Below, in pieces: positions 9,963-33,409 of a DNA stretch of 47,471 nucleotides; within the stretch, counting starts at the first letter, position 1; the number at the start of each line of letters is the position of its first letter. The notes under the pieces were generated by a model that made no database searches, was not told where the DNA came from, and saw only the letters and a program-made list of their open reading frames with translations. Both the position numbers and the translations under genes were made by a program. The stretch comes from a virus (Duplodnaviria > Heunggongvirae > Uroviricota > Caudoviricetes), in IMG/VR virus record IMGVR_UViG_2541047941_000003, positions 1 through 47,471 of that record. One strand, written 5' to 3'.

Positions 9963-10871
9963 ATGTCAAACACCGCTGAAATAATCAATTTCCCAAATAA
10001 AACCGAACAACCGGGAGGTCGTATGGCCGACCTGTCGAACGGGTATACCAAGGTCGCTAACGAGATCCAACAGCTTAAGCCTCGCCTGAGACTGTCAGGC
10101 CGGGAATGGCAATGTTTTGAGGCGGTGATCTGGCTTACCTACGGCTGGAACAAGAAACAGGACCGCGTGACAAATACGGTTATTGCCGAGCTTACGGGCC
10201 TGAGCGATACGCATGTATCGGACGCGCTTAAGTCTCTCGCAGAACGCAAAATCATCTTTTCACAGAAGCAGGGCATGATGAAAATCGTCGGTGTAAACAC
10301 TGACCTTTCAGCATGGATTTTAGACAAACCGGAAACGGGAAGAAAATTCCCGAAAACGGGAAAATCCTTCCCGAAATCAGGAATAACCTTCCCGAAAACG
10401 GTAGACACCCAATACAAGAACAAGAACAGTATTAAAAGATCTTCGTCCGAGAATTCTGACGAATCCTCTGACGCACGTCTGAAGAAATTTTTATCAACTC
10501 ATCCTGAAGCTGCGGTCTACACACCATCCGGTGCGAAGTGGGGCTCTGCTGAAGACCTCGAGACAGCTAAGTGGATTTCCTCCAGGGTGAAGCTGATTAA
10601 CCCAACCTGCAAAGCCCCGGACATGACCTCCTGGTCTAACACTGTTCGCCTGATGCGCCAGATAGACAACCGGTCGCACCAGGACATCTGCGCGCTGTAT
10701 GACTGGGCTAGCAAACACCACTTCTGGCAGACCAACATCCTGAGTCCCGAAAGCCTGCGTAAGCAGTGGGACAAGCTGACAATGCAGCGTAACGCCGGAG
10801 GTGAGCAGCGCGCTGTCAAGCCAGATCTGGACTTCAACAACACTGACTGGGCCTATGGGGTGATCCGATGA
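9963..10871 (+). CDS. Replication initiation protein (lambda O-like N-terminal domain)
   Basis: GGAG RBS; N-terminal REWQCFEAVIWLTYGWNKK...AELTGLSDTHVSDALKSL resembles phage O/replication-protein HTH; iterons inside gene. Confidence 0.7.
   Translation: MSNTAEIINFPNKTEQPGGRMADLSNGYTKVANEIQQLKPRLRLSGREWQCFEAVIWLTYGWNKKQDRVTNTVIAELTGLSDTHVSDALKSLAERKIIFSQKQGMMKIVGVNTDLSAWILDKPETGRKFPKTGKSFPKSGITFPKTVDTQYKNKNSIKRSSSENSDESSDARLKKFLSTHPEAAVYTPSGAKWGSAEDLETAKWISSRVKLINPTCKAPDMTSWSNTVRLMRQIDNRSHQDICALYDWASKHHFWQTNILSPESLRKQWDKLTMQRNAGGEQRAVKPDLDFNNTDWAYGVIR
10329..10402. repeat. Putative replication origin iterons (3-4 copies of TTCCCGAAAACGG-like unit) inside O-like gene
   Basis: ttcccgaaaacggg, ttcccgaaatcagg, ttcccgaaaacggt plus inverted ccggaaacgggaa; encodes repeated FPK(T/S)G peptide. 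Confidence 0.6.
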
Positions 10872-11557
10872 AATCTCTTGCAGAGCAGATGCGTAACCAC
10901 GACCGCGAGCAGATGAGCCGCATGGCCCATAACCTGCCAGAGCAGTACCAGGAGTGCGCGCCGGTCGAGCAGGTGGCGCAGGTATTCAACAAGCTGTTCA
11001 ACGAGCTGCGCGCCGCGTTCCCGGCCAGCATGGCGAACTTCCGCACCCAGGAAGACCTGAACGAATTCCGCCGTCAGTGGCTGCTGGCGTTTCAGGAGAA
11101 CGGGATCCACACCATGGCTCAGGTCGATGCCGGCATGCGCATTGCCCGCCGCCAGGAGCGCCCATTCCTGCCGTCGCCGGGCCAGTTCGTCGCCTGGTGC
11201 AAGCAGAGCGGCGGCGCGCTGGGCGTCAACGTTGACCAGGTGATCGCCGAATACTGGGACTGGCGTAACCGCTCGTTCGAATTCATCTCCAGCGAGCAAT
11301 TTCCATGGTCGCAGCCGGTCATGTACCACATTTGCGTAGAATTGCGCCACCGCAGCACCGAGCGCCAGTTAACGCATGGTGAACTGGCACGCGAGGCAGG
11401 CGATCTGCTGGACATGTGGGAAAGGCGCGTCACCGAGGGTAAGCCAGTGCCGCCGGTACGCCGGGCTATTGCCGCACCAGCTGCCGAGCAAGGGCCGACG
11501 CCGATCCAGCTGCTGCTGGCCAAGTACAACCGCAACAAGTCGAACGGGATGGTGTGA
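10868..11557 (+). CDS. Replication protein P-like (DnaB helicase loader)
   Basis: 229 aa; strong resemblance to lambda P (EQMRNHDREQM..., RPFLPSPGQFVAWC). Confidence 0.8.
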   Translation: MKSLAEQMRNHDREQMSRMAHNLPEQYQECAPVEQVAQVFNKLFNELRAAFPASMANFRTQEDLNEFRRQWLLAFQENGIHTMAQVDAGMRIARRQERPFLPSPGQFVAWCKQSGGALGVNVDQVIAEYWDWRNRSFEFISSEQFPWSQPVMYHICVELRHRSTERQLTHGELAREAGDLLDMWERRVTEGKPVPPVRRAIAAPAAEQGPTPIQLLLAKYNRNKSNGMV

Positions 11558-11558
11558 C

Positions 11559-11903
11559 ATGAACATAACAATCCGTGAGCAGGTGCTGGCAGCCCTGCGC
11601 AACAACCCAGGGTTGAACAACGCCAAACTGGCAGGGCTTATCGGCATGGACACCAAAAAGATATCCGGAACGGTGAGCACGCTGCTGGCAGACGGCCTGA
11701 TCCGCTGCGAAGGAAAATACGGCCAGCGCCTTTACAGCCTGACCAGCTACGGAATGCGCTTCGCCCCTGACACGATACCTGGCATGAAGCAGGGTAAGTC
11801 GAAGTTAATTCAGCGGACGGACACAAACGTGATCTGCCAGGAGTGCCGCAACAGCGCGGCGATGAGAAGGGTATTGATGGTTTGGGGGAGGGTAGGGGTA
11901 TGA
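11559..11903 (+). CDS. Hypothetical protein, possible winged-helix DNA-binding
   Basis: 114 aa, ATG 1 nt after P stop. Confidence 0.4.
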   Translation: MNITIREQVLAALRNNPGLNNAKLAGLIGMDTKKISGTVSTLLADGLIRCEGKYGQRLYSLTSYGMRFAPDTIPGMKQGKSKLIQRTDTNVICQECRNSAAMRRVLMVWGRVGV

Positions 11904-12097
11904 AAATCGAAGATATCAAAAACGTTGCGGTGTTCTTCAATATGAACGGCAAGACAGTAGCGTTACGAATGGATGCTGAGCAGAAGCGGATCGTCGCATT
12001 AATGGCGCTTAACACGGCTGATGCTCGGGCAGAACTGATTGAAGTGCCGCACATGACTTTACCAGCAGACCCAGCCATGGAGGAGGCCGCCCAATGA
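11900..12097 (+). CDS. Hypothetical protein
   Basis: 65 aa; ATGA overlap with upstream stop. Confidence 0.35.
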   Translation: MKIEDIKNVAVFFNMNGKTVALRMDAEQKRIVALMALNTADARAELIEVPHMTLPADPAMEEAAQ

Positions 12098-12471
12098 GCA
12101 ACATCGACAAACGTGGATTACGGGAAGTAGCGGAGAAGGCGACGAAAGGCCGGTGGGCTGTTGAGTTCGACGATGAGATTTACTCCACTGACGGCGTGAA
12201 CCATGAGCAAATAGCCATGGTATTCAGTGAAAACGAAGCGCGTGATGCTGCATTTATCGCCGCAGCCAACCCCGCCACCGTGCTGGCGCTGCTGGATGAG
12301 CTGGAATCCAAAGACAGGCGCAACGCTGAGCTGGAGGCAAAGTTAGCTAATCCCGTTTTGCTGCCAAAAACAAACGGCTACTGGACTGAGCAAGAAAAGG
12401 CTTATGAGGACGCTATCACACTAGCTAAGCGGCAGATTCGTCTGGCTGGATTCAGTGTGGAGGACATGTAA
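12094..12471 (+). CDS. Ead/Ea22-like protein
   Basis: 125 aa; PATVLALLDELE-type motif common in lambdoid nin-region proteins. Confidence 0.45.
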   Translation: MSNIDKRGLREVAEKATKGRWAVEFDDEIYSTDGVNHEQIAMVFSENEARDAAFIAAANPATVLALLDELESKDRRNAELEAKLANPVLLPKTNGYWTEQEKAYEDAITLAKRQIRLAGFSVEDM

Positions 12472-12713
12472 TGGCTATTTTTATGGAAGTACGTTGTGAA
12501 GGTGGTGAAGTTGATGGTTGCCATTCTTACCAGAACGCCGGGCCTGTGACGTCAGCTCATGAAAGCGTTAAGGGCGTTTCTGTGGCGCTGGCATTCCTTA
12601 AATCCGATTCAATCTATAACGGCTGGGTTTTGCACAAAGGTGAGCTTTATTGCCCGGTATGCGCCAAAGCAAAAGCATGGGACGCCGCTGGCATTGGCGT
12701 GAAGGGGGAATGA
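12471..12713 (+). CDS. Hypothetical protein
   Basis: 80 aa ORF in tightly packed nin-region operon. Confidence 0.35.
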   Translation: MAIFMEVRCEGGEVDGCHSYQNAGPVTSAHESVKGVSVALAFLKSDSIYNGWVLHKGELYCPVCAKAKAWDAAGIGVKGE

Positions 12714-12714
12714 G

Positions 12715-12918
12715 ATGTCAAAGTCACCAATGAAACTCATGCTACGGGCATGGAACAAAGAGCTTAAAAATCCAGAATGGGGCATGGGCAATCGTAAACA
12801 CCGCAAAGCTTGTGCTCGTGATTTTGCCGGAGCCAGCATAGAAACCGATGCTGATATCCCTAACCAAGCCGAAGCAGATGACCGCCTGGCGGAAGAACTT
12901 ACTTACTGGACGGACTAA
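12715..12918 (+). CDS. Hypothetical protein
   Basis: 67 aa ORF. Confidence 0.35.
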   Translation: MSKSPMKLMLRAWNKELKNPEWGMGNRKHRKACARDFAGASIETDADIPNQAEADDRLAEELTYWTD

Positions 12919-12921
12919 CCC

Positions 12922-13245
12922 ATGACAACTAACCACCCGGCGCACGGTCATGTATCACTCGATCGCCTGCACCAGATACGCGAAATACTCAGCAAAGCAT
13001 CCGCACAAAGCGACGGCGGTAATCTCGGCTACGCAATGGCTGATGCTGTGAAGGTGATTGATGAAGTGCTGGCGGCGCGCGCTGAAACCGTGAAGCTGCC
13101 GGCAGGGTACAACGTCCGACCTGGGCATCCAATTAACGAATCAGAGCGCGGCGTAATGATCCCCAAAGATAACGGCCAATGGCTTTCGCGTTTCGACGTT
13201 GAGCATGCCCTGCGAGTGGCGGGCGTCAGATTTAAGGAGGACTGA
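12922..13245 (+). CDS. Hypothetical protein
   Basis: 107 aa ORF. Confidence 0.35.
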   Translation: MTTNHPAHGHVSLDRLHQIREILSKASAQSDGGNLGYAMADAVKVIDEVLAARAETVKLPAGYNVRPGHPINESERGVMIPKDNGQWLSRFDVEHALRVAGVRFKED

Positions 13246-13502
13246 TGGAACCTCAACTGGAATACGCCACGAAACGCATCGTCGAACTGGAAAACCTGCT
13301 GCTGGTGGATGTGACCGAAACCGTCTGGCCTGCTGAGGTGGGAATGGTATATAGCCAGATTGAAAGTGCCGGGGATCTCCCGGCGCATCACCAGCGCCGC
13401 CTGAAGCATCACATCAACCGTATGTGGCTGGAGAAAATGCCGGTACCAGCCATCGTAAACGCCGCCCAGTCACTGGCCACCGCTATGGAGAAATACGCGT
13501 GA
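13245..13502 (+). CDS. Hypothetical protein
   Basis: 85 aa ORF. Confidence 0.35.
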   Translation: MEPQLEYATKRIVELENLLLVDVTETVWPAEVGMVYSQIESAGDLPAHHQRRLKHHINRMWLEKMPVPAIVNAAQSLATAMEKYA

Positions 13503-15382
13503 GAGAAATCATCGTTGATAACTTTGCCGGCGGCGGCGGGGCGAGCACGGGCATTGAGCTGGCGATCGGTCGTAGTGTGGATATTGCGATTAACCACGAC
13601 CCGAACGCTGTTGCGATGCACACTACGAACCACCCGGATACACTGCACTACTGCGAATCGGTGTTTGATGTCGATCCCATCGTAGCGACCGCTGGCCGCC
13701 CGGTGGGGCTGGCATGGTTTTCCCCTGATTGCCGTCACTTCTCAAAGGCTAAAGGTTCAAAGCCGGTAGAGAAAGAGATTCGTGGTTTGGCGTGGATTGT
13801 CATTCGCTGGGCGCTGGCGGTACGTCCCCGTGTGATGATGCTGGAGAACGTTGAAGAGTTCCGCACCTGGGGGCCGCTTATCGAATCTGCTGATGGTGGG
13901 TTACGTCCAAATCCCCTGCGTACTGGTGAGACCTTCGAGGCTTTCTGCGGCATGCTATCCGGTGGTATTCCTGCCGGTCATCCGGCGCTGGCGGAGTGCT
14001 GCGAGTTCCTGGGTATTACTGCCGACGGCGAACTGGCGCAGCAACTGGTGGCCGGGCTGGGTTACGCTGTTGATCATCGTGAGCTGCGCGCCTGCGACTT
14101 TGGCGCACCGACCATCAGGAAGCGTTTCTTCATGGTAATGCGTTGCGATGGTATGCCGGTGACCTGGCCGGACCCGACCCACGGCGACCCGAAATCTCCA
14201 GCTGTGCAGAGTGGAAAGTTGGCGCCATGGCGTACAGCTGCGGAGTGTATCGACTGGACCATTCCGGCACCGTCGATATTCGACCGCAAAAAGCCACTGG
14301 CTGAAAATACGCTCAAACGCATCGCTCGTGGCATCCAGCGGTTTGTGATCGAGAGCGCGTCGCCGTTCATCGTCAAGTGCAACCACACGACGACCAAAGG
14401 GAAATACGACTGTTTCCGTGGGCAGGCGCTGAGAGAGCCTCTGCAGACCATTACGAAAACCCACGGCTACGCGTTAGCCGTTCCACACCTGACAAAGTTC
14501 CGTACTGGCGCAACCGGGCAGCCCGTTACCGAACCCGTCCCGACGGTAACCGCTGGCACATCAAAACGTCCGGGCGGGAATGGGCATGCTCTGGGTATTG
14601 TTGAGGCAGCCATTGCGCCGTTTGTTGGTCGACAGTTTGGTGCGAGTGTCGGCCACCGGGCAGACGAACCGAGCGCAACCATCACCGCTGGCGGTGGCGG
14701 TAAATCTCAACTTGTAACGCCTACGCTGATCCAGATGGGTTATGGCGAACGACCTGGACAAGAACCGCGTGTGCTACGACTGGATAACCCGCTGGGGACC
14801 GTTACTGCAGGTGGAAATAAATTCGCGACGGTGAGCGCGTTTCTGGCGAAACACTACGGCGGCAACTATACGGGGCCGGGTGTCAGTATGGATGAGCCTA
14901 TGCACTCGGTTACGACTGTCGATCACCATGCAGTAGTTGCCTCTCATCTGGTGAAACTGCGTGGAACATGCCGCGACGGTCAACCATCCAGTGATCCAAT
15001 GCCAACAGTGACGGCGGGTGGGCTGCACGTAGGGGAGGTGAAAACCACTCTTGCGGTCGATGAATACGACGAACATCGCGCGCAGCTGGCGTTGGAGTTC
15101 CTGCGTAAGTACTGCGGTGAGGATTGCGACGGGCTGGTAGATATTGACAGAATCACTTTTCGCATCGTTGATATCGGTATGCGGATGCTGCAACCGCACG
15201 AGCTATACCGCGCGCAGGGCTTCCCGGAGTGGTACATCATCGATCAGGACTATCGGGGGCAGAAGTACGCGAAGGACAAGCAGGTTGCGCGTTGTGGCAA
15301 CGCAGTTCCGCCGCCATTCGCCGAGGCACTGGTGAGGGCTAATTTACCGGAGCTTTGTCAGCAGAAAGAGATCGCAGCTTAA
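13499..15382 (+). CDS. DNA (cytosine-5)-methyltransferase, phage orphan type
   Basis: GTG start overlapping upstream stop; motifs FAGGGGAS (AdoMet), SPDCRHFSKAKG (PC-like catalytic), MLENVEEF (ENV), RAQGFPEWY (C-terminal). Confidence 0.8.
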   Translation: MREIIVDNFAGGGGASTGIELAIGRSVDIAINHDPNAVAMHTTNHPDTLHYCESVFDVDPIVATAGRPVGLAWFSPDCRHFSKAKGSKPVEKEIRGLAWIVIRWALAVRPRVMMLENVEEFRTWGPLIESADGGLRPNPLRTGETFEAFCGMLSGGIPAGHPALAECCEFLGITADGELAQQLVAGLGYAVDHRELRACDFGAPTIRKRFFMVMRCDGMPVTWPDPTHGDPKSPAVQSGKLAPWRTAAECIDWTIPAPSIFDRKKPLAENTLKRIARGIQRFVIESASPFIVKCNHTTTKGKYDCFRGQALREPLQTITKTHGYALAVPHLTKFRTGATGQPVTEPVPTVTAGTSKRPGGNGHALGIVEAAIAPFVGRQFGASVGHRADEPSATITAGGGGKSQLVTPTLIQMGYGERPGQEPRVLRLDNPLGTVTAGGNKFATVSAFLAKHYGGNYTGPGVSMDEPMHSVTTVDHHAVVASHLVKLRGTCRDGQPSSDPMPTVTAGGLHVGEVKTTLAVDEYDEHRAQLALEFLRKYCGEDCDGLVDIDRITFRIVDIGMRMLQPHELYRAQGFPEWYIIDQDYRGQKYAKDKQVARCGNAVPPPFAEALVRANLPELCQQKEIAA

Positions 15383-15481
15383 TGTCCGAGTTTCAGAACA
15401 TGGTGTAACAAATCCTGCTACTTCAATGACGTAGATTCAAACCTGATATAATTAGGCTCTTCACAACACGAGGAGCCTAAA

Positions 15482-15718
15482 ATGCACCATTACATGATCC
15501 CTATCAACGGAACTGTTCACCTGATCAAGACTGACTCTCTAATCCCTGAAGGGACTGAGTATAGCTTTGAAGGAGAAAGTCTAATCTGCGCTCATGCCAC
15601 TTTTAAATCTGGGACGTATGGCTTCCTGATACCAAAGGGAAATCAGTTGAATAGAGAGCATGCGTTCTGGCATGTAAGTGGAATTCACCCTAATCCCCTG
15701 GGAATGGATAAATCGTAA
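15482..15718 (+). CDS. Hypothetical protein encoded in AT-rich insertion at methyltransferase 3' end
   Basis: 78 aa ORF with AGGAG RBS; flanked by duplicated methyltransferase 3' ends. Confidence 0.4.
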   Translation: MHHYMIPINGTVHLIKTDSLIPEGTEYSFEGESLICAHATFKSGTYGFLIPKGNQLNREHAFWHVSGIHPNPLGMDKS

Positions 15719-15728
15719 TCCATAATAT

Positions 15729-15763
15729 GCATGCCATCGTCCTGAACATACGGTGGCATGCAT
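15729..15763. other. Perfect 10 bp inverted repeat (atgcatgcca ... tggcatgcat) hairpin
   Basis: Read directly; 15 nt loop; not followed by T-run. Confidence 0.4.
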
Positions 15764-15989
15764 CCGGCACTACAACAGAAACGTTAAAGTGCAAACAATA
15801 CAATTCGAGCAATATTCAACCTGTCACAGATGGCGAATACCACCGCCATTTCGTGCATTCTGTGGTTTCTATTACCCATTGCGTTAATGCTGTCCAATCA
15901 TCAGCTCGCTGAGGCGCTGGTTAGGGCTAACCTACAGGAGCTTTGTCAGCAGAAACAAATAGCGGCGTAATAAAACATCGCTAATTCAA

Positions 15990-16016
15990 CCCGCTACGGC
16001 GGGTTTTCTTTTTTTA
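15990..16016 (+). terminator. Intrinsic terminator (cccgc-tacg-gcggg + T-run)
   Basis: GC stem followed by ttttcttttttt. Confidence 0.7.
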
Positions 16017-16077
16017 CTACTGACAGAAAATTAACAATTTGTGCTCTTAAAACGTTGATCATTTCCGCGCATAGGTA

Positions 16078-16097
16078 TACTGTATAAAAACACAGTA
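16078..16097 (+). promoter_or_regulatory. LexA box (SOS box) TACTGTATAAAAACACAGTA overlapping promoter of dinI-like gene
   Basis: CTGT-N8-ACAG with AT-rich spacer matches consensus TACTGTATATATATACAGTA; TTGATC -35-like hexamer 17 bp upstream. Confidence 0.8.
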
Positions 16098-16115
16098 CAT
16101 GCAATGGGGGCCATT

Positions 16116-16349
16116 ATGAAAGTTGAATTAACCATTGATCGCATGAAAGAACTTCCTAAAGGCGCAGTACCAGCACTGGAGAAAGAACTGCTTAAGCGCC
16201 TGAATGATCACTATGACAATTGCAGGCTCACAATCCGCCGTGCCGGGGCCGATGGGTTAAGTGTTTTTGGTGGTGACAAGGACGATAAAAAGAAAATTGA
16301 ATCAATCCTCCAGGATACCTGGGAAAGCGCTGACGACTGGTTTTATTAG
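16116..16349 (+). CDS. dinI: DinI-like SOS protein
   Basis: 77 aa; resembles E. coli DinI (VELTIDR..., ESILQDTWESADDWF); LexA box upstream. Confidence 0.75.
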   Translation: MKVELTIDRMKELPKGAVPALEKELLKRLNDHYDNCRLTIRRAGADGLSVFGGDKDDKKKIESILQDTWESADDWFY

Positions 16350-16466
16350 AATTGCGCTTAAGGCTGGCGCGCATTTTTCAGAATACCGCAATTTGCGTAA
16401 CCCTCTGATGCTGCTGCCGACAATCTTTAATCGCGTCTGTTAGTCGCTCGAAGGGAGAACATAAAT

Positions 16467-16715
16467 GTGAGTGATTCAGCTTTGCAAACGTCAGAAGACA
16501 ACTGGTATGACATTGTAAGAAGGTCTGACGGCTGCGTGGTGTTTAGCTTTCCTTCATCGGGCAGGCATCTAATTTATCGCGTCAATGGCATGGTTTCTAT
16601 GCGGCCTTTGCTGGATGATGAAGAGGTCTTTACTCCTAATGGTTTTATGCAGTTTATTCACCGTCTCGGCTACCGGGTAACCCCACCTTCTGATAATATG
16701 AAATCAACGGTCTGA
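16467..16715 (+). CDS. Hypothetical protein
   Basis: 82 aa ORF, probable GTG start. Confidence 0.3.
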   Translation: MSDSALQTSEDNWYDIVRRSDGCVVFSFPSSGRHLIYRVNGMVSMRPLLDDEEVFTPNGFMQFIHRLGYRVTPPSDNMKSTV

Positions 16716-16749
16716 ACAACCGTAACCTACTGCGCCACGGAGAGAAACC

Positions 16750-17349
16750 ATGGCGCACGAACTACAACTCATCAAGCATTCCTCAGGAATCCTGATCCCC
16801 GCTACGCCGGAGACCAGTGATTTACTGCAATCAAAAATCAAACTCGGCTCCGTACTGGTGGCTGAGTTCCGGCAGGTACGCAACCCGGCCTTTCACCGTC
16901 GTTTCTTCGCGTTACTCAATCTCGGTTTCGAATACTGGGAACCCACCGGCGGGGCAATCTCCTCCAACGAACGCAAGCTGGTAACCGGCTATGCCAAGTT
17001 CCTTGCCTCATTCGCGGGAAGTGAAGCAGCACTCCTGGATGCTGCTGAGCAATATCTGGACCGCATCGCCGATAAGCGCGCCGGTAGTATCAGCATCTGC
17101 AAATCCTATGACGCATATCGTGCATGGGTGATCATCGAGTCTGGCCACTACGACGCCATACAGCTTCCCGACGGCACCCTTCGCAAACACCCCCGCAGCA
17201 TTGCCTTTGCCAACATGGACGAAACCGAGTTCCAGCAGCTGTACAAAGCCGCGCTCGATGTTCTGTGGCGCTGGGTATTGTCCCGGGCATTCAAGGACCA
17301 GCGTGAAGCGGAAAACGCCGCATCGCAGCTCATGAGCTTTGCGGGGTGA
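16750..17349 (+). CDS. DUF1367-like nin-region protein
   Basis: 199 aa; position upstream of ninG typical for this family. Confidence 0.45.
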   Translation: MAHELQLIKHSSGILIPATPETSDLLQSKIKLGSVLVAEFRQVRNPAFHRRFFALLNLGFEYWEPTGGAISSNERKLVTGYAKFLASFAGSEAALLDAAEQYLDRIADKRAGSISICKSYDAYRAWVIIESGHYDAIQLPDGTLRKHPRSIAFANMDETEFQQLYKAALDVLWRWVLSRAFKDQREAENAASQLMSFAG

Positions 17350-17555
17350 TGGCGATGAAATATTCCTGGTTCCACCATCACGAATGCACAACCGATCAGG
17401 CCGACGAGCTGGTGGCCAGTTACCGTCGTCGTGGCGCCACGGTAGAACGTAGCCTGAATCGCGACAACATCACCTGGACTATCAGCGCAAAATTGCCTGA
17501 ATGCGAGCATCCGGCGCGTACACCAAGAACCTTTCGACAAAAGGTCTGGGGGTGA
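17346..17555 (+). CDS. Hypothetical protein
   Basis: 69 aa ORF overlapping neighbours by 4 nt. Confidence 0.3.
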   Translation: MMAMKYSWFHHHECTTDQADELVASYRRRGATVERSLNRDNITWTISAKLPECEHPARTPRTFRQKVWG

Positions 17556-18299: not shown

Positions 18300-18989
18300 A
18301 TGAATACTCAATTTCTCGAATACGTGCGCCAGCAGTTGATGGTGGCCACCGCCGATTTAAGTGGTGCGACGAAAGGGCAGTTGATGGCGTGGCTTGAAAA
18401 CGCGCAGTTCGATACGGGAACGTTTAAACGTAAAAAGCCTCGAGTGCTGGATGAAGTGACCGGGGAAATGATTACGCTGGATAACCCGCCAATACCGGGC
18501 AAGCAGTCGCATACCAAGGGTTCGCATATTCCCCTGGTGCAGCCGGTTGAATACTCCAGCGCATCGTGGCGCCGCGCACTGATGTCACTCGAAGAACACC
18601 AGAAAGCGTGGCTGCTATGGAACTATAGCGAGAACGTGCGCTGGTGCTATCAGGTGGAAATCACTCAATGGGCGTGGGCAGAGTTCCGGGAGCAGCTCGG
18701 CGCGAAGAAGGTGGCCGGCAAAACGATGGAGCGCCTGAAGAAGCTTGTCTGGCTCGCGGCTCAGGACGTGAAAGCAGAGCTGGCAGGGCGTGAGACGTAC
18801 GAATATCAGGCGCTGGCGTCGCTGGTTGGCGTAACGCCAAAAAACTGGTCAGAGACCTTTACTGACCGCTGGGTTGAGATGCGCAGCATCTTCCTGCGAC
18901 TGGATAGCGGGGCTTTATTGCAGGTTACGCGATCACGTTCACAACAAAAGGCGACAAATTTAGACTCAAGTCTTGCAAAACTGGATTGA
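18300..18989 (+). CDS. Late-gene antiterminator Q-like protein
   Basis: 229 aa, position between ninG and lysis cassette, followed by tR'-like terminators. Confidence 0.55.
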   Translation: MNTQFLEYVRQQLMVATADLSGATKGQLMAWLENAQFDTGTFKRKKPRVLDEVTGEMITLDNPPIPGKQSHTKGSHIPLVQPVEYSSASWRRALMSLEEHQKAWLLWNYSENVRWCYQVEITQWAWAEFREQLGAKKVAGKTMERLKKLVWLAAQDVKAELAGRETYEYQALASLVGVTPKNWSETFTDRWVEMRSIFLRLDSGALLQVTRSRSQQKATNLDSSLAKLD

Positions 18990-19054
18990 AACGCATATAT
19001 TTCATGTAAATCTGATATCGTCGCCATAGCTTCGTAGGTCGACAAAGAATTAAG

Positions 19055-19086
19055 AGCCTCGCCATCGTGCGGGGCTTTTTTATTTG
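19055..19086 (+). terminator. tR'-like intrinsic terminator (copy 1)
   Basis: GC-rich imperfect hairpin followed by ttttttatttgcg. Confidence 0.5.
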
Positions 19087-19160
19087 CGGTACGCAGCACA
19101 CAGAACCCACTACCTGGGACCCTTCGGCCAGAGAGCCGACATTGCCTTACCCTCACATTG

Positions 19161-19184
19161 CCAGCCTGTCGCTGGCTTTTTTAT
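19161..19184 (+). terminator. tR'-like intrinsic terminator (copy 2)
   Basis: ccagc-ctgtc-gctgg hairpin followed by the same ttttttatttgcg tail. Confidence 0.55.
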
Positions 19185-19258
19185 TTGCGATGTCCGGTCG
19201 TTGTTTCCTGGCATCCTTCCACTCTACACAAACAGCACCCCGTTCCTTCGGAGGTGAT

Positions 19259-19576
19259 ATGGCAAAGCGTATGAATGACGACCACAAAATTGTAGGCCTG
19301 TCCTGGTTAGTCCTGCTCGGCATTGCATGCTGGGGCGGTTTAGTTCGCTACCTGATCGACGTAAAGCAGAATAAAGCGACATGGAGCTGGATAAACGCGC
19401 TGGCACAGATCGCTGTCTCCGGCTTTACCGGTTTGATTGGCGGGTTGATAAGCGTGGAGAGTGGGTTGAGTTTTCACATGATCCTTGTCACGTCCGGCAT
19501 TAGCGGGGCGATGGGTTCAGTGGCTCTGACCTATTTCTGGGAACGCTTGACGGGGATGAAGAATGCAAACCAGTGA
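19259..19576 (+). CDS. Holin with dual-start motif (MAKRM)
   Basis: GGAGG RBS; two Met codons separated by basic residues; TM segments; immediately upstream of lysozyme. Confidence 0.65.
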   Translation: MAKRMNDDHKIVGLSWLVLLGIACWGGLVRYLIDVKQNKATWSWINALAQIAVSGFTGLIGGLISVESGLSFHMILVTSGISGAMGSVALTYFWERLTGMKNANQ

Positions 19577-20502: not shown

Positions 20503-20907
20503 ATGCAAATAGATCAAGAATACCTTAAAGGTTTGCTCGAGGCTTTCGAGGCATCGGATTCACCTGATACCGATATTATTCGATTAAAGGATTTAGGGTT
20601 CAATTGTGAAACTGACACATTTGTGTTTCATATGCGTTTGCTTGAGGATAGAGGGCTGATTATCAGGAGTGATGGGGAGCCCGGCTTTGGTGCTATTCAG
20701 TCTTTAGACGGAATGACTCACTGGGCTGTAATGCCCTTGCGATTGACCGCGATGGGGCATGACTTCTTGGATGCTCTCCGTAACAAAGAGGTTTGGGCAA
20801 CATTAAAAACCGGATTCAAAGATGCCAGTATGGGCACGCTGATGACAGTTTCGAAGGAGCTGTTTAACCGAGCTCTAGCTAAGCAACTTGATAAAATGTT
20901 CGACTAA
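20503..20907 (+). CDS. Hypothetical moron protein (134 aa)
   Basis: Lower-GC ORF between lysis and packaging modules with own terminator. Confidence 0.45.
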   Translation: MQIDQEYLKGLLEAFEASDSPDTDIIRLKDLGFNCETDTFVFHMRLLEDRGLIIRSDGEPGFGAIQSLDGMTHWAVMPLRLTAMGHDFLDALRNKEVWATLKTGFKDASMGTLMTVSKELFNRALAKQLDKMFD

Positions 20908-20929
20908 CCGCCTACGGGCGGTTTTTTAT
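20908..20929 (+). terminator. Intrinsic terminator (ccgcc-tacg-ggcgg + tttttt)
   Basis: Perfect 5 bp GC stem and T6 run directly after stop codon. Confidence 0.75.
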
Positions 20930-29793: not shown

Positions 29794-30153
29794 ATGGGCG
29801 TGGACTGGGATTTACATCTTCTGAGTCCGCTCCATGGCGTGTTTGGCGATGAGCATGAGTACCGTCCCCGCAACGGTACTCCTTTTACGATTAACGGTAT
29901 TTTTGACCGTGGCTATGCGCAGGTTGCAGAAAATCTTGATGGTGATTCAGAAATTAACACCTCCAGCCCAATGCTTGGGGTGCGCGATGCTGAATTTCGT
30001 CAGTTGGGTAAACCGCAACCTGCCGTATCTGACCGTGTGTTTATCAAAACGGTCGGAGGTCAGATCATCAATCAGTTATTTGTTGTGTCCAACGTCGAAC
30101 CGGACAGCCATGGCGGCTCACGTCTTGTTCTCAATGTGGCGAAAACCCGATGA
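29794..30153 (+). CDS. Putative head completion / head-tail connector protein
   Basis: 119 aa; position. Confidence 0.4.
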   Translation: MGVDWDLHLLSPLHGVFGDEHEYRPRNGTPFTINGIFDRGYAQVAENLDGDSEINTSSPMLGVRDAEFRQLGKPQPAVSDRVFIKTVGGQIINQLFVVSNVEPDSHGGSRLVLNVAKTR

Positions 30154-30695
30154 ATGCTTCCGCAATACGACACATGGTCGTGGCAGCGCTGAAAGATAAA
30201 ACGGCTGCCGCCGATCGTGTGTATTCCCCGCGTGACTGGGCAACTTCGCCGGACCTGTACCCAGCGTTGCTTGTTCAGACGCCATTTGATCACAAAAAGG
30301 CGCAGGGGAGAAATGTCCCGGCCTTTACCTCTTTGACCACCGTTCGCATTACTGGCCGGGTTCAGGAGTACGACAGTGAAACCACTGATGATGGCGCCAT
30401 GCGCGCGGAGGTTGCGCTGGAAGAGCTCCGGGAACAGGTAGAAAGGGCGGTGATTAACAGCTACGAGTTAACCCGGAACATCCAGAAATATGCGGAGGTC
30501 CGCTCGACGATTGATGTTGATGCGGATGGTGAAGCGCATATGGGCCAGCTGCTTATCGAAATTGATATTGAGCACTATCAGGGACCGGAAGACTTTTATC
30601 CGGTCGATACGGTGCCGCTGGCGGGGATCGACATCACCATCGACATGCCGGACGGTACGCTGCAGCCGGTCGTAAAAATAGACCTTCAGGAGTAA
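30150..30695 (+). CDS. Putative tail completion/neck protein
   Basis: 181 aa; position between head and sheath genes. Confidence 0.4.
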   Translation: MNASAIRHMVVAALKDKTAAADRVYSPRDWATSPDLYPALLVQTPFDHKKAQGRNVPAFTSLTTVRITGRVQEYDSETTDDGAMRAEVALEELREQVERAVINSYELTRNIQKYAEVRSTIDVDADGEAHMGQLLIEIDIEHYQGPEDFYPVDTVPLAGIDITIDMPDGTLQPVVKIDLQE

Positions 30696-30697
30696 TC

Positions 30698-30883
30698 ATG
30701 TTTGTAAAACCGAAGGACGGGCTCAGCGTTCGCTGCCCTGTCAGGGGGGAGCCTTTGCCCAAAGATGGCGCGGAGGTACCTGATAATACGTTCTGGCGTC
30801 GCCGCCTGAAGGATGGCGACGTCAGTCTGGTACCGGAAAAGGGCGTTAAAAACGCCGTAAAAAAAGAGGGCGTAATTAAATGA
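30698..30883 (+). CDS. Small conserved phage protein upstream of tail sheath
   Basis: 61 aa; translationally coupled to sheath gene. Confidence 0.4.
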   Translation: MFVKPKDGLSVRCPVRGEPLPKDGAEVPDNTFWRRRLKDGDVSLVPEKGVKNAVKKEGVIK

Positions 30884-32391
30884 CCGTTCCATTTTCGCGA
30901 GTTCCCGGCAATTTACGTGTGCCGCTTTTTTATGTGGAGTTTGATAACTCCATGGCCAACACGGCGACGGCTACACAACGAACGCTGTTGATTGGTCAGA
31001 TGCTGGCATCAGGCTCTGCACAGGAAAAAATCCCGGTAAAAGTCTCCTCTCCCAATGCGGTGGGTGAGCTCACCGGAAAAGGATCAATGCTGCATGGCAT
31101 GATGACGGCGTATCAAAAAAACGATACTGCTGCGGAGGTCTGGATCCTTCCGCTGGCTGATGATGCGGATTCGATGGCAGTGGCAACTGGCAGTATCAAG
31201 GTTGCCACACAGGCGGCAGAAACCGGCGTTATCTCTCTTTATATTGCTGGCGTTCGCGTACAACTGACCGTACTGGCGACTGACACTCCGGCTCAGATTG
31301 CCACTGCGCTGGTCGCGGCGATTACCCGCAAAACGGAACTGCCGGTGACAGCTGCTGTAAAAGCCGATGCAACGGATACCGTGACACTGACGGCCAAAAA
31401 TGCCGGGTTGCTGGGCAATGGTATTGATATCAGGCTGAATTATCTCGGTGTTCAGGGTGGTGAGGTGACGCCCGCGGGCCTGACACTCACCATCACGGGC
31501 ATGACCGGCGGCGCCGGCGCGCCGGATTTTGTTGATGCCCTTGGCAACCTGCAGGATAAGACCTTTGATTTTGTCATCAACCCTTATGATGACACCGCAT
31601 CACTGGATGCCATCAGAGAATTTCTGAACGATGCAACCGGCCGCTGGGCATGGGATAAACAGCTTTATGGCCACGCATTCACCACTACCAACGGCACTTA
31701 CGCCGAGCTTGGCACCAAAGGGGAAACCCGTAATAACCAGCATGAGTCACTGCTTGGTGTGTATCGCTCACCGTCACCGCGTTATATCTGGGCGGCGGCA
31801 CTGACAGGGGCCGCCGCACCCAGCCTGCGTAATGACCCCGCACGTCCGCTACAAAGTCTGCCTGTTTATGGCGTGCTGGCACCGGACCTGGCGGATCGCT
31901 TTGAACTGACAGAGCGCAATAACCTGCTGTACAGCGGCATCTCCACTTACACCGTGGGTGATGACGGGACGGTGATGATTGAAAACCTGATTACCACCTA
32001 CCAGAAAAACAGCTATGGCGACGAAGACGACAGTTACCTGCAGGTGGAAACGCTCTTCAGCCTGATGTTTGTCACGCGATATCTCCGCACTGCAGTGACC
32101 AGTAAATTTGGTCGCATGAAGCTGGCCGCGGATGGCACGCGTTTTGCGCCGGGGGCGGCGATTGTGACGCCAAACATCATCAGAGCCGATCAGATCGCGG
32201 AATACCAGACGCTGGTCTTTAACGGCTACGCGCAGGACGCTGAGGCCTTCGCCAGAAACATTATCGTGGAGCAGAACAAAACAAACCCGAACCGCGTCGA
32301 TGTGTTGTGGCCGGGAACGCTTATGAACCAGTTGCGCATCTTCGCGCTGCTTAACCAGTTCCGCCTGCAGGCTGAATCAACAGGAGCATAA
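30880..32391 (+). CDS. Contractile tail sheath protein (Mu gpL-like)
   Basis: 503 aa; followed by tube, frameshifted chaperone and tape measure genes. Confidence 0.75.
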   Translation: MTVPFSRVPGNLRVPLFYVEFDNSMANTATATQRTLLIGQMLASGSAQEKIPVKVSSPNAVGELTGKGSMLHGMMTAYQKNDTAAEVWILPLADDADSMAVATGSIKVATQAAETGVISLYIAGVRVQLTVLATDTPAQIATALVAAITRKTELPVTAAVKADATDTVTLTAKNAGLLGNGIDIRLNYLGVQGGEVTPAGLTLTITGMTGGAGAPDFVDALGNLQDKTFDFVINPYDDTASLDAIREFLNDATGRWAWDKQLYGHAFTTTNGTYAELGTKGETRNNQHESLLGVYRSPSPRYIWAAALTGAAAPSLRNDPARPLQSLPVYGVLAPDLADRFELTERNNLLYSGISTYTVGDDGTVMIENLITTYQKNSYGDEDDSYLQVETLFSLMFVTRYLRTAVTSKFGRMKLAADGTRFAPGAAIVTPNIIRADQIAEYQTLVFNGYAQDAEAFARNIIVEQNKTNPNRVDVLWPGTLMNQLRIFALLNQFRLQAESTGA

Positions 32392-32394
32392 AAC

Positions 32395-32766
32395 ATGGCT
32401 GGAGATACCACTAGTCGCCTGGCAGGTACCGCTTATGTCACCGTAAACGGGGTGACAGTTATGGTGGAGGGCTCATTCAAGTATCAGACCTCCACTGTTA
32501 ACCGTACCACGCTGACAGGCATGGACGGTGTGCATGGCTACAAAGAAAAGCCGGTTGCCCCGTATATTTCTGCCCGTCTTCGCGACAGCGGCGGTACCAA
32601 CGTACTGGGTTTTAACAAACAGACGAACGTCAACGTGATCGCCGAACTGGCGAACGGAAAGACTATTATCGGTCGCGCGCTATGGACGGTGAACGTTCAG
32701 GAAGTGGAAAGCGAAGATGCAGTGTTTGATGTTCGCTGGGAAGGCCGGGACGTAACGGAGAACTAA
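32395..32766 (+). CDS. Tail tube protein (Mu gpM-like)
   Basis: 123 aa directly after sheath. Confidence 0.65.
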   Translation: MAGDTTSRLAGTAYVTVNGVTVMVEGSFKYQTSTVNRTTLTGMDGVHGYKEKPVAPYISARLRDSGGTNVLGFNKQTNVNVIAELANGKTIIGRALWTVNVQEVESEDAVFDVRWEGRDVTEN

Positions 32767-32767
32767 G

Positions 32768-33046
32768 ATGGCAGAACTTGAACGCACCAAAGTCATTCCC
32801 CTCATCAAGCCTCTGGTCGATGAGGCGCAAAAAACACGCTATGAGCAACTGGAGCTGAAGGCGCCGACGCTCAGCCAGGCAGAGCAGTTCTACGAAAAGC
32901 AGGCATCGTCCACTTCACTGGCGGCGATGCGCCTGCTGATCTCGCTGGTCACGGATACGCGGGAAAGTGTGCTTCAGCCGATGGATTTTATCGACTTCCG
33001 AAAATGCGAGGAGTTTTTGCTCGGTTTTTTGACCTGGAAGCCCTGA
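32768..33046 (+). CDS. Tail assembly chaperone (short product of frameshift pair)
   Basis: 92 aa ORF ending just after slippery TTTTTTG. Confidence 0.6.
   Translation: MAELERTKVIPLIKPLVDEAQKTRYEQLELKAPTLSQAEQFYEKQASSTSLAAMRLLISLVTDTRESVLQPMDFIDFRKCEEFLLGFLTWKP
33025..33031 (+). other. Programmed -1 ribosomal frameshift slippery heptamer T_TTT_TTG
   Basis: X_XXY_YYZ heptamer in zero frame near end of chaperone ORF; -1 frame stays open to 33195. Confidence 0.6.
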
Positions 33047-33195
33047 CCGCCTGGCAGGAAACGGCGGCTGACGTCACATTTTATTTCCGCTGGACAGAAG
33101 ACAGGGCATGGGGCATGACCTATGCCCGTCTGAAGTGGTGGGTATCGCAGGCCTCCCGTATCAATAAACTCAGGAATCCCGAACCCGATGAGTAA
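33030..33195 (+). CDS. C-terminal extension of tail assembly chaperone made by -1 frameshift (fusion product 32768..33195)
   Basis: Overlapping ORF in -1 frame ending with TAA that overlaps ATG of tape measure ORF. Confidence 0.5.
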
Positions 33196-33409
33196 TTCTT
33201 TCGACTTTGAGCTGGTGGCCAGCGACTAGGCGACGGAAGCCATTGAGCGTATCAATGAGGCTATCCGTGATCTGGAACCAAAGCTGGATAAAACCAAAGA
33301 GGGACTCCAGTTAGGAGGGCAGGAGACCCTCGATGGACTGAACGGCTTTATTTCCCGCTTCGAAAATCTGTCCAAAAATGCCCGTGATAATGTTCAGTAC
33401 ATCGGGGAC

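Follow-up and report, generated by a model that had tools for sequence, protein, structure and literature searches.

A probable late-operon leader with two different terminators in series between a Q82-family antiterminator gene and the lysis genes of an Escherichia coli lambdoid prophage

In an Escherichia coli lambdoid prophage two terminator-like hairpins with the same tail stand between the gene for the antiterminator Q and that for the holin, and the question is whether one is a copy of the other or whether two different elements have come to lie side by side. We addressed this on a stretch of 47,471 nucleotides (IMG/VR record IMGVR_UViG_2541047941_000003), hereafter the window, in which the parts from Q to the holin described below all lie on the + strand. 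We consider it probable that the region serves an E. coli lambdoid prophage with a Q82-family antiterminator as its late-operon leader and that it carries two different terminators in series. The 401 nt around the two hairpins recur with 100% identity in E. coli ET881 and 20KM2222, where PGAP leaves the gap from Q to the holin unannotated.

A repeat search of positions 18900-19300 found the 16-mer GGCTTTTTTATTTGCG in two exact copies, at 19073-19088 and 19174-19189, 101 nt apart. The 47-kb window holds no third copy when two mismatches are allowed, and none of 100 shuffles of the window reached two matches. In a consensus scan each copy proved to be the last stem bases and T-tract of a GC-rich terminator-like hairpin, the first (T1) with 11 pairs at 19052-19079 and the second (T2) with 6 pairs at 19160-19176, which when folded alone gave -16.7 kcal/mol (z -3.0) and -10.9 kcal/mol (z -3.4), respectively. 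Both lie inside the gap from Q (18300-18989) to the holin gene (19259-19576). The two hairpins with a common tail that a preliminary description had placed ahead of the late (lysis) operon are thus real, with a shared tail longer than was stated there; of the spacing given, the two sites stand but the figure of about 105 bp does not. Beyond the 16-mer the two units have little in common. The only other repeat within 18900-19300 is one 13-nt, 92% two-copy match between 18907-18919 in the Q coding sequence and 19069-19081 in T1, of a kind flagged as often due to chance, and with a seed of 7 no similarity was found there between the stems of T1 and T2 or the sequences upstream of them. The stems differ (GAGCCUCGC/GCGGGGCUU in T1 versus GCCAGC/GCUGGC in T2) and the loops are unrelated too.

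The identity of T1 follows from its surroundings. The gene upstream (18300-18989) encodes a protein of Pfam family PF06323 (E 5e-101), which is the Q82 family (PMC9388147). The same ORF is called by PGAP in E. coli ET881, and the protein is 71% identical to AntQ of Gifsy-1 (STM2617) over residues 1-221, diverging beyond; a search for a solved structure of the Q protein found none. A PR'-like late promoter (18973-19001; consensus scan, 9/12 matches) overlaps the end of the gene, its -35 hexamer TTGCAA (18973-18978) lying within the last Q codons and being followed, after a 17-nt spacer, by the -10 hexamer TATATT (18996-19001). We compared 41 genome loci from Kluyvera, Citrobacter, Enterobacter, Leclercia and others, fetched by Q protein similarity alone (63-85% protein identity), and across them both hexamers keep an identical spacing from the Q stop codon and are conserved in sequence. 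We regard this promoter as PR'-type and predict that it is constitutively active.

Downstream of the promoter lies an IsrJ-family leader RNA of about 74 nt (19005-19082, predicted start 19008). The match to Rfam RF01393 isrJ spans 19005-19078 and model positions 1-75 of 75, with 68.7 bits against a gathering score of 37 (E 1e-10). In most of the 41 loci the IsrJ-like leader sets in about 19 nt beyond Q; in about ten its 5' end has diverged and gives no blastn match, and the gathering score of RF01393 was reached in 9 of 20 diverse loci in one batch and in 5 of 9 relatives in a second. IsrJ of Salmonella Gifsy-1 is a 74-nt RNA with a mapped 5' end, expressed in Salmonella from a plasmid under its own promoter, the Hfq-associated expression at about 74 nt having been recorded for the Salmonella copy only (PMC2330248), and its 3' end is a rho-independent terminator (PMC4825925). 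The first hairpin of the leader (19020-19043; Rfam consensus structure and fold) occurs in three different versions among relatives.

A candidate sigma70-dependent pause element occupies 19013-19025 and consists of TG at 19013-14, a -10-like TATCGT at 19016-21 (+9 to +14 from 19008) and CGCC directly behind it. When 26 diverse leaders are aligned, no variation is seen in GATAT, in the sixth hexamer position (T) or in the GC of the GCC next to it. In pR' of phage 82 the pause element, an extended -10-like sequence, lies 9 bp downstream of the place it has in lambda and is accompanied by GCC at +15-17 and an AT-rich stretch, and polymerase pauses at +25/26 (PMC5001585). The TATCGT element stands in the register of phage 82 pR' and may therefore, judged by position and invariance, serve in pausing and Q loading.

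The leader ends in T1 (19052-19085; consensus scan, Rfam model and fold), with a stem of 19052-19062 and 19069-19079 and a T-tract at 19076-19085. At least six different self-complementary versions of this stem were counted by eye in relatives; support for T1 and for leader hairpin 1 consists of such alternative stems and of the Rfam model, as MAFFT shifts the columns of the stem versions. Taken together, the IsrJ-family match, the Q82-family Q and the anatomy of promoter and pause element lead us to interpret T1 as the tR' equivalent of a Q82-type late leader and the IsrJ-like RNA as its 6S-like short product. The short 6S-like transcript suggested earlier is in this way given a family and a source, T1 being the terminator of an IsrJ-family RNA whose PR'-like promoter extends over the stop codon of Q. 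In order, the region shows a Q82-family Q upstream, a predicted sigma70 promoter, an extended -10-like element with GCC, a terminator and lysis genes, and the arrangement is the standard anatomy of a Q82-type lambdoid late leader, with a known RNA family at T1.

T2 (19160-19186; consensus scan, fold and covariation) is of another kind. Its stem pairs 19160-19165 with 19171-19176 around a loop at 19166-19170, and the tail U6AUUU (19177-19186) follows directly. Upstream lies a conserved block (19105-19159; delimited from IMG/VR copies and column identity), made up of the helices P1 (19106-19109/19115-19118) and P2 (19124-19128/19135-19139) and the single-stranded motif CAUUGCCUUACCCUCACAUU (19140-19159). 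The 23-mer core of the block, CCTGGGACCCTTCGGCCAGAGAG, has at least 120 exact copies among IMG/VR contigs, and block columns are at least 90% identical across 90 distinct sequences, a conservation that is partly imposed, the sequences having been selected by the exact 23-mer. In the same 90 sequences four of the six T2 pairs change on both sides (CG53/GC31, CG69/UA20, GC51/AU26/CG5) and the stem is 96.7% paired, a value that none of 500 shuffles and none of six slid controls came close to. A covariance model built from the alignment of these block and T2 sequences recovered the element downstream of Q, on the + strand, in about 30 of the 41 loci chosen by Q similarity and also in the P22-like phage ST64T. 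Among the 20 most diverse matches all six T2 pairs and all five P2 pairs change on both sides, counts that lean towards the model since the alignment was fitted to it; in the unbiased alignment the compensatory changes of P2 rest on single sequences, and P1 shows no covariation in either the 90-sequence alignment or the diverse model-fitted set. The motif (U)UACCCUCAU, located 4-6 nt before the T2 stem, is present in every diverged member.

With its GC-rich hairpin, direct U-tract and compensated stem, T2 has the features of an intrinsic terminator, and we interpret it as the terminator of a separate conserved element of about 85 nt that is unrelated to T1. The roughly 55 nt upstream of T2, near-invariant beside a stem that has changed repeatedly, exceed what a plain terminator needs. 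The block with T2 belongs to no Rfam family at gathering scores or at E up to 10; the only matches were weak and terminator-driven, such as RyhB at 14 bits, and were rejected as evidence of a known RNA family. Within E. coli the block is found in 33 of 5426 complete genomes, and in the 25 matches listed it carries no annotation, except for two partial matches under a hypothetical-protein CDS.

What lies between the two terminators varies greatly among relatives. From the isrJ core to the block the distance is 103-830 nt among the fetched relatives, and ARAGORN predicted 0-3 tRNAs in this slot in 66 block copies with an upstream isrJ core (52 distinct segments), the tRNAs being those for Asn, Thr, Phe, Gly, Arg and Met. 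Many cargo-bearing relatives have the start of their first slot tRNA about 8-10 nt beyond T1, and a tRNA that closes the cargo ends about 10 nt before the block core. Three tRNA genes separate T1 and the block in Enterobacter phage ENT1, and the slot of CobraSix holds an ORF, a tRNA-Arg and about 300 nt of other sequence; a diverged block with T2 sits in the same place in Klebsiella phage ST15-VIM1phi2.1 and in ST64T, whose Q is Q21-like. The window has no tRNA or tmRNA. Its T1 and T2 are adjacent because the slot is empty, and the junction (19086-19104, GCGGTACGCAGCACACAGA) resembles the 3' end of a tRNA-bearing variant: the form T-tract-GCGG(T/C)(A/G)CGC.GCACACAGAACCC is found behind T1 or leader types of at least three kinds, and tRNA-bearing relatives have ..CGATCGCCACACACAGAACCC at this place. 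The empty slot would thus have arisen by loss of tRNA cargo.

Two further kinds of cargo were seen in passing. In another class of block copies, about 300 nt of tRNA-less cargo, ending ..GCCGGCCACCACAAACC, precede the block (36 of 132 IMG/VR copies, and CobraSix [L003] 2110-2365). A T-arm-like GGTTCGACTCC occurs in this element together with a long hairpin, ACAACAGGAAAGAGCA..TGCTCTGTCCGTTGT; the element as a whole has a fold z of -2.3, and neither Rfam (E up to 1) nor tRNA prediction gave a match to it. In other relatives the slot between Q and the lysis genes carries the Rfam RNAs STnc100 (RF02076) and isrI (RF01392) (L006 2171-2368, L020 4671-4858, L010 4214-4310 and L013 4779-4875), and it would therefore seem to be a general landing place for small-RNA and tRNA cargo.

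The relatives also account for the matching tails. Within the 16-mer, GGC is the stem end, TTTTTTATTT a common tail and GCG the only three specific bases. T2 occurs with three tail types: A, TTTTTTATTTTCAGGCyCCGGGAA; B, TTTTTTATTC(C)AGGCCGCAGACA; and C, TTTTTTATTTGCGATGTCCGG, the type of the window. The tail TTTTTTATTT is exact in types A and C and in several T1 variants, type B having the shorter TTTTTTATTC. Among 132 IMG/VR copies the upstream class is empty in 45, tRNA in 46 and other cargo in 36, and the tail type is A in 71, B in 31 and C in 25. All nine combinations of upstream class and tail type occur, and both 16-mers are found together in 10 of the 132 copies. The type C tail, present in 25 IMG/VR contigs, always follows T2, in five different upstream contexts.

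A tandem duplication, in which T2 was copied from T1 and the locus makes one transcript family with a duplicated 3' end, would explain why 16 nt are exactly identical at a distance of 101 nt, which shuffles never matched. It leaves unexplained why stems, loops and upstream sequences are unrelated, with homology ending at the 16-mer and no other repeat at seed 7, and why most of that 16-mer is the generic TTTTTTATTT. Moreover, there are contigs in which a T2 bearing this tail has a tRNA or other cargo, and not T1, as its nearest upstream neighbour, and T1 with the same tail is also paired with T2 tails of types A and B. We give the duplication hardly any credence, and the wording of the preliminary description, "tandemly duplicated" with a "duplicated 3' end", does not hold, for only 16 nt are common and the units assort separately in relatives. 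Since T2 tail types combine freely with T1-side junctions, the identical tails are better read as a generic T-tract with 3 further nt, brought about by a mosaic of a T1-side junction with a T2 tail type. The type C tail may have been copied long ago from a T1 tail.

Two different terminators in series thus remain the preferred reading, and they suggest the following course of events. Transcription from the constitutive PR'-type promoter overlapping the end of Q would start near 19008, and polymerase would pass the sigma70-dependent pause element, the presumed Q loading site. Without Q it would mostly stop at T1 and release an IsrJ-family RNA of about 74 nt, the counterpart of lambda 6S RNA or StxS. 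Polymerases leaking past T1 would meet T2 101 nt further on as a back-up stop, and in cargo-bearing relatives T2 would end the cargo transcript and shield the holin, endolysin and spanin genes. Polymerase modified by Q would pass T1 and T2 alike. The slot tRNAs of relatives would be made from read-through or Q-modified transcripts, because the 8-10 nt after T1 leave no room for a promoter. The two serial barriers would thereby be likely to keep constitutive late-promoter transcription from the lysis genes before Q is present.

Published work on related phages bears on several of these steps. The late promoter is constitutive in lysogens of lambda, 82 and Stx phages (PMC7547250), and read-through of the IsrK terminator has been documented (PMC4825925). 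In BTP1 lysogens expression is high for the two tRNAs that lie between Q and the lysis genes, and the lytic operon directly after them is silent (10.1101/787010); a stop is therefore needed at the position of T2. Counting against the scheme are the T2 stem, which has only 6 bp and -10.9 kcal/mol, and the near-invariance of the block before it, for which the scheme offers no explanation. What we computed here is anatomy, family membership, conservation, covariation and modular assortment, and from these we infer the start site, pausing, termination efficiencies, Q read-through and insulating role.

The conservation of the block has two readings that do not exclude one another, namely an RNA function or a shared recombination junction between modules. 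On the first, block and T2 (19105-19186) would form a regulatory sRNA with UUACCCUCAU as its seed, made from read-through or tRNA-cargo transcripts in the manner of a tRNA 3' external transcribed spacer or of a 3'-end-derived Hfq-binding sRNA; we consider this a tentative possibility, and one compatible with the serial terminators preferred above. Pointing to it are about 55 nt at least 90% conserved in 90 copies next to a stem with at least three compensated versions, the order of hairpin, C/U-rich conserved single strand, terminator hairpin and U-tail, and the compensatory changes in P2. The block also starts right at the tRNA 3' end in relatives, and it keeps company with three holin types and several Q or leader types, as a module of its own would. 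A precedent is StxS, an sRNA that arose as a by-product of an antiterminated late promoter (PMC7547250). The case is weakened by the missing Rfam family, by P1, which lacks covariation, and by P2, whose unbiased support comes from single sequences; besides, a search of the window for the complement of the motif gave nothing above chance, the window holds no tRNA from which the RNA could be processed, and recombination may account for the conservation instead. Pairing of the motif with the holin ribosome-binding site was tried by hand and dropped, as it reached only 4-6 bp.

On the second reading the block would be a DNA-level junction at which Q/cargo and lysis modules are swapped, with no RNA function and with T2 alone functional. 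The free assortment of upstream classes and tail types around a nearly invariant core fits such a junction, as do the mosaic nature of the window itself and the case of the relative L042, where the block is 100% identical though the Q protein is only 63% identical. It would not explain the compensatory changes in P2 or the survival of the motif in diverged members, and identity is something that recombination needs and does not create. We regard a junction of this kind as unlikely.

Much less probable still is a conditional attenuator, riboswitch-like or under protein control, by which block and T2 would gate the lysis genes independently of Q. A structured conserved segment directly before a terminator and a lethal gene set is what such a device would look like. 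In the 90-sequence alignment, however, no alternative pairing tracks the T2 stem variants, and GGCCAG in P2, the sole candidate for a competing strand, does not change along with the T2 arms; no Rfam riboswitch matched at E up to 10, and the element is short. Coding readings were discarded as well: both a 57-aa ORF (19084-19257) and an extension of the holin frame upstream from 19067 are contradicted by close relatives, in which the T2 tail differs by 1-nt indels and stems have been swapped. The consensus scan placed no promoter within 19090-19260. The P22 sncRNA 'P22E' lies upstream of gene 13 and has a different sequence, making it only a loose analogue.

Set against known systems, the leader is closest to IsrJ of Gifsy-1 (RF01393), with which it shares 5' sequence, hairpin, A-rich linker and terminator at about 85% DNA identity and, in both cases, a prophage setting downstream of a Q82-family Q. 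The two differ in host, which is Salmonella for Gifsy-1 and E. coli for the window; in that isrK-orf45-anrP stands between AntQ and isrJ in Gifsy-1, whereas the leader directly follows Q in the window and the 41 loci; and in that the role reported for IsrJ in SPI-1 effector translocation in Salmonella has no obvious counterpart in the window. In the Gifsy-1 locus (L002, 600-1620) the last 17 nt or so of a window-type Q gene (TTGCAAAACTGGATTAA) recur after anrP (STM2616) and before isrJ, and isrK-orf45-anrP therefore appears to be an insertion that has parted AntQ from the late promoter and leader it originally had. An insertion of this cassette predicts that the isrJ promoter is the natural AntQ loading site.

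With phage 82 pR' and lambda PR'-qut-tR' the window shares the order of Q, constitutive promoter, -10-like element, terminator and lysis genes, and with phage 82 also, by comparison with the published description, an extended -10-like hexamer followed by GCC, here at +9 to +14. Its leader would be, like lambda 6S RNA, a short terminated RNA. Unlike either phage, the window has a second conserved terminator further downstream. StxS/EcOnc15 of Stx phages, an Hfq sRNA of the PR'-tR' interval, is likewise a short RNA from an antiterminated late promoter, and the tRNA genes that Stx phages carry downstream of tR' are matched by those between the first terminator and the late genes in relatives of the window; however, no sequence similarity to the window leader was detected, and the Stx slot holds toxin genes. 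RNAs derived from tRNA 3' external transcribed spacers exist, an example being 3'ETS-leuZ. In many relatives the block with T2 is likewise the trailer from the last tRNA to the operon terminator; 3'ETS-leuZ, however, comes from a core-genome operon, and the block in the window is a prophage element with no tRNA before it.

The analysis allows the gap between Q and holin to be labelled as a late promoter, an IsrJ-family leader with its terminator, an empty tRNA/cargo slot and a second conserved terminator, with a very conserved block upstream of T2 that is absent from Rfam. IsrJ, which has been studied as a stand-alone virulence-linked Salmonella sRNA, stands directly after Q in most of the 41 loci, and this position predicts that AntQ of Gifsy-1 loads at the isrJ promoter. 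In many enterobacterial lambdoid phages two terminators bracket a tRNA/cargo slot, so that cargo could be expressed in lysogens without the lysis genes being switched on. The current understanding of Q antitermination is unchanged. A wider joint reading, of which we are doubtful, would make block and T2 an undescribed, widespread prophage family of regulatory RNAs that act in trans on host or phage mRNAs through an invariant UUACCCUCAU, with IsrJ a generic 6S-like by-product of Q82-type (AntQ-type) promoters and the isrJ promoter the AntQ loading site.

The lysis genes that follow T2 begin with the holin gene (19259-19576, PF16083), the first late gene, which has two in-frame starts, at 19259 (MAKRM..) and at 19271 (MNDD.., the PGAP start); a lysozyme gene and an Rz-like gene come after it. 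The starts (19236-19275) resemble the dual-start motif of a holin/antiholin pair. By prediction the ribosome-binding site GGAGGUG pairs with CACCCCG upstream of it, and the holin leader is the same as in P22-like gene 13 regions (ST64T and phage L). The leader of the lysis genes opens with a hairpin at 19189-19215 (GAUGUCCGG..CCUGGCAUC, from folding), which belongs to the type C tail. In each of the three tail types a hairpin stands right behind the T-tract of T2, A and B forming long-range stems of about 12 bp (CAGGCCCCGGGA..TCCCGAGGGCCTG in A, AGGCCGCAGACA..TGTCTGACGGCCT in B), and these hairpins may be processing or stabilising structures of the late mRNA.

The window as a whole is a mosaic prophage. 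Its replication/nin region (within 10000-17500) matches E. coli phage mEp237 at 98% identity, the nearest relatives of the Q-leader module are in Enterobacter and Klebsiella phages, and the contractile-tail genes for sheath and tube (30000-33200) are about 75% identical to Citrobacter phage phiNP. At 40001-44000 the GC content is 0.43, against about 0.54 in the rest of the window, and this part may be accessory cargo near the prophage end. Directly after the Rz-like gene lies an ORF of the DUF2513 family (20503-20907) with a strong terminator-like hairpin at 20906-20923, and the pair, situated between the lysis and structural genes, looks like a moron.
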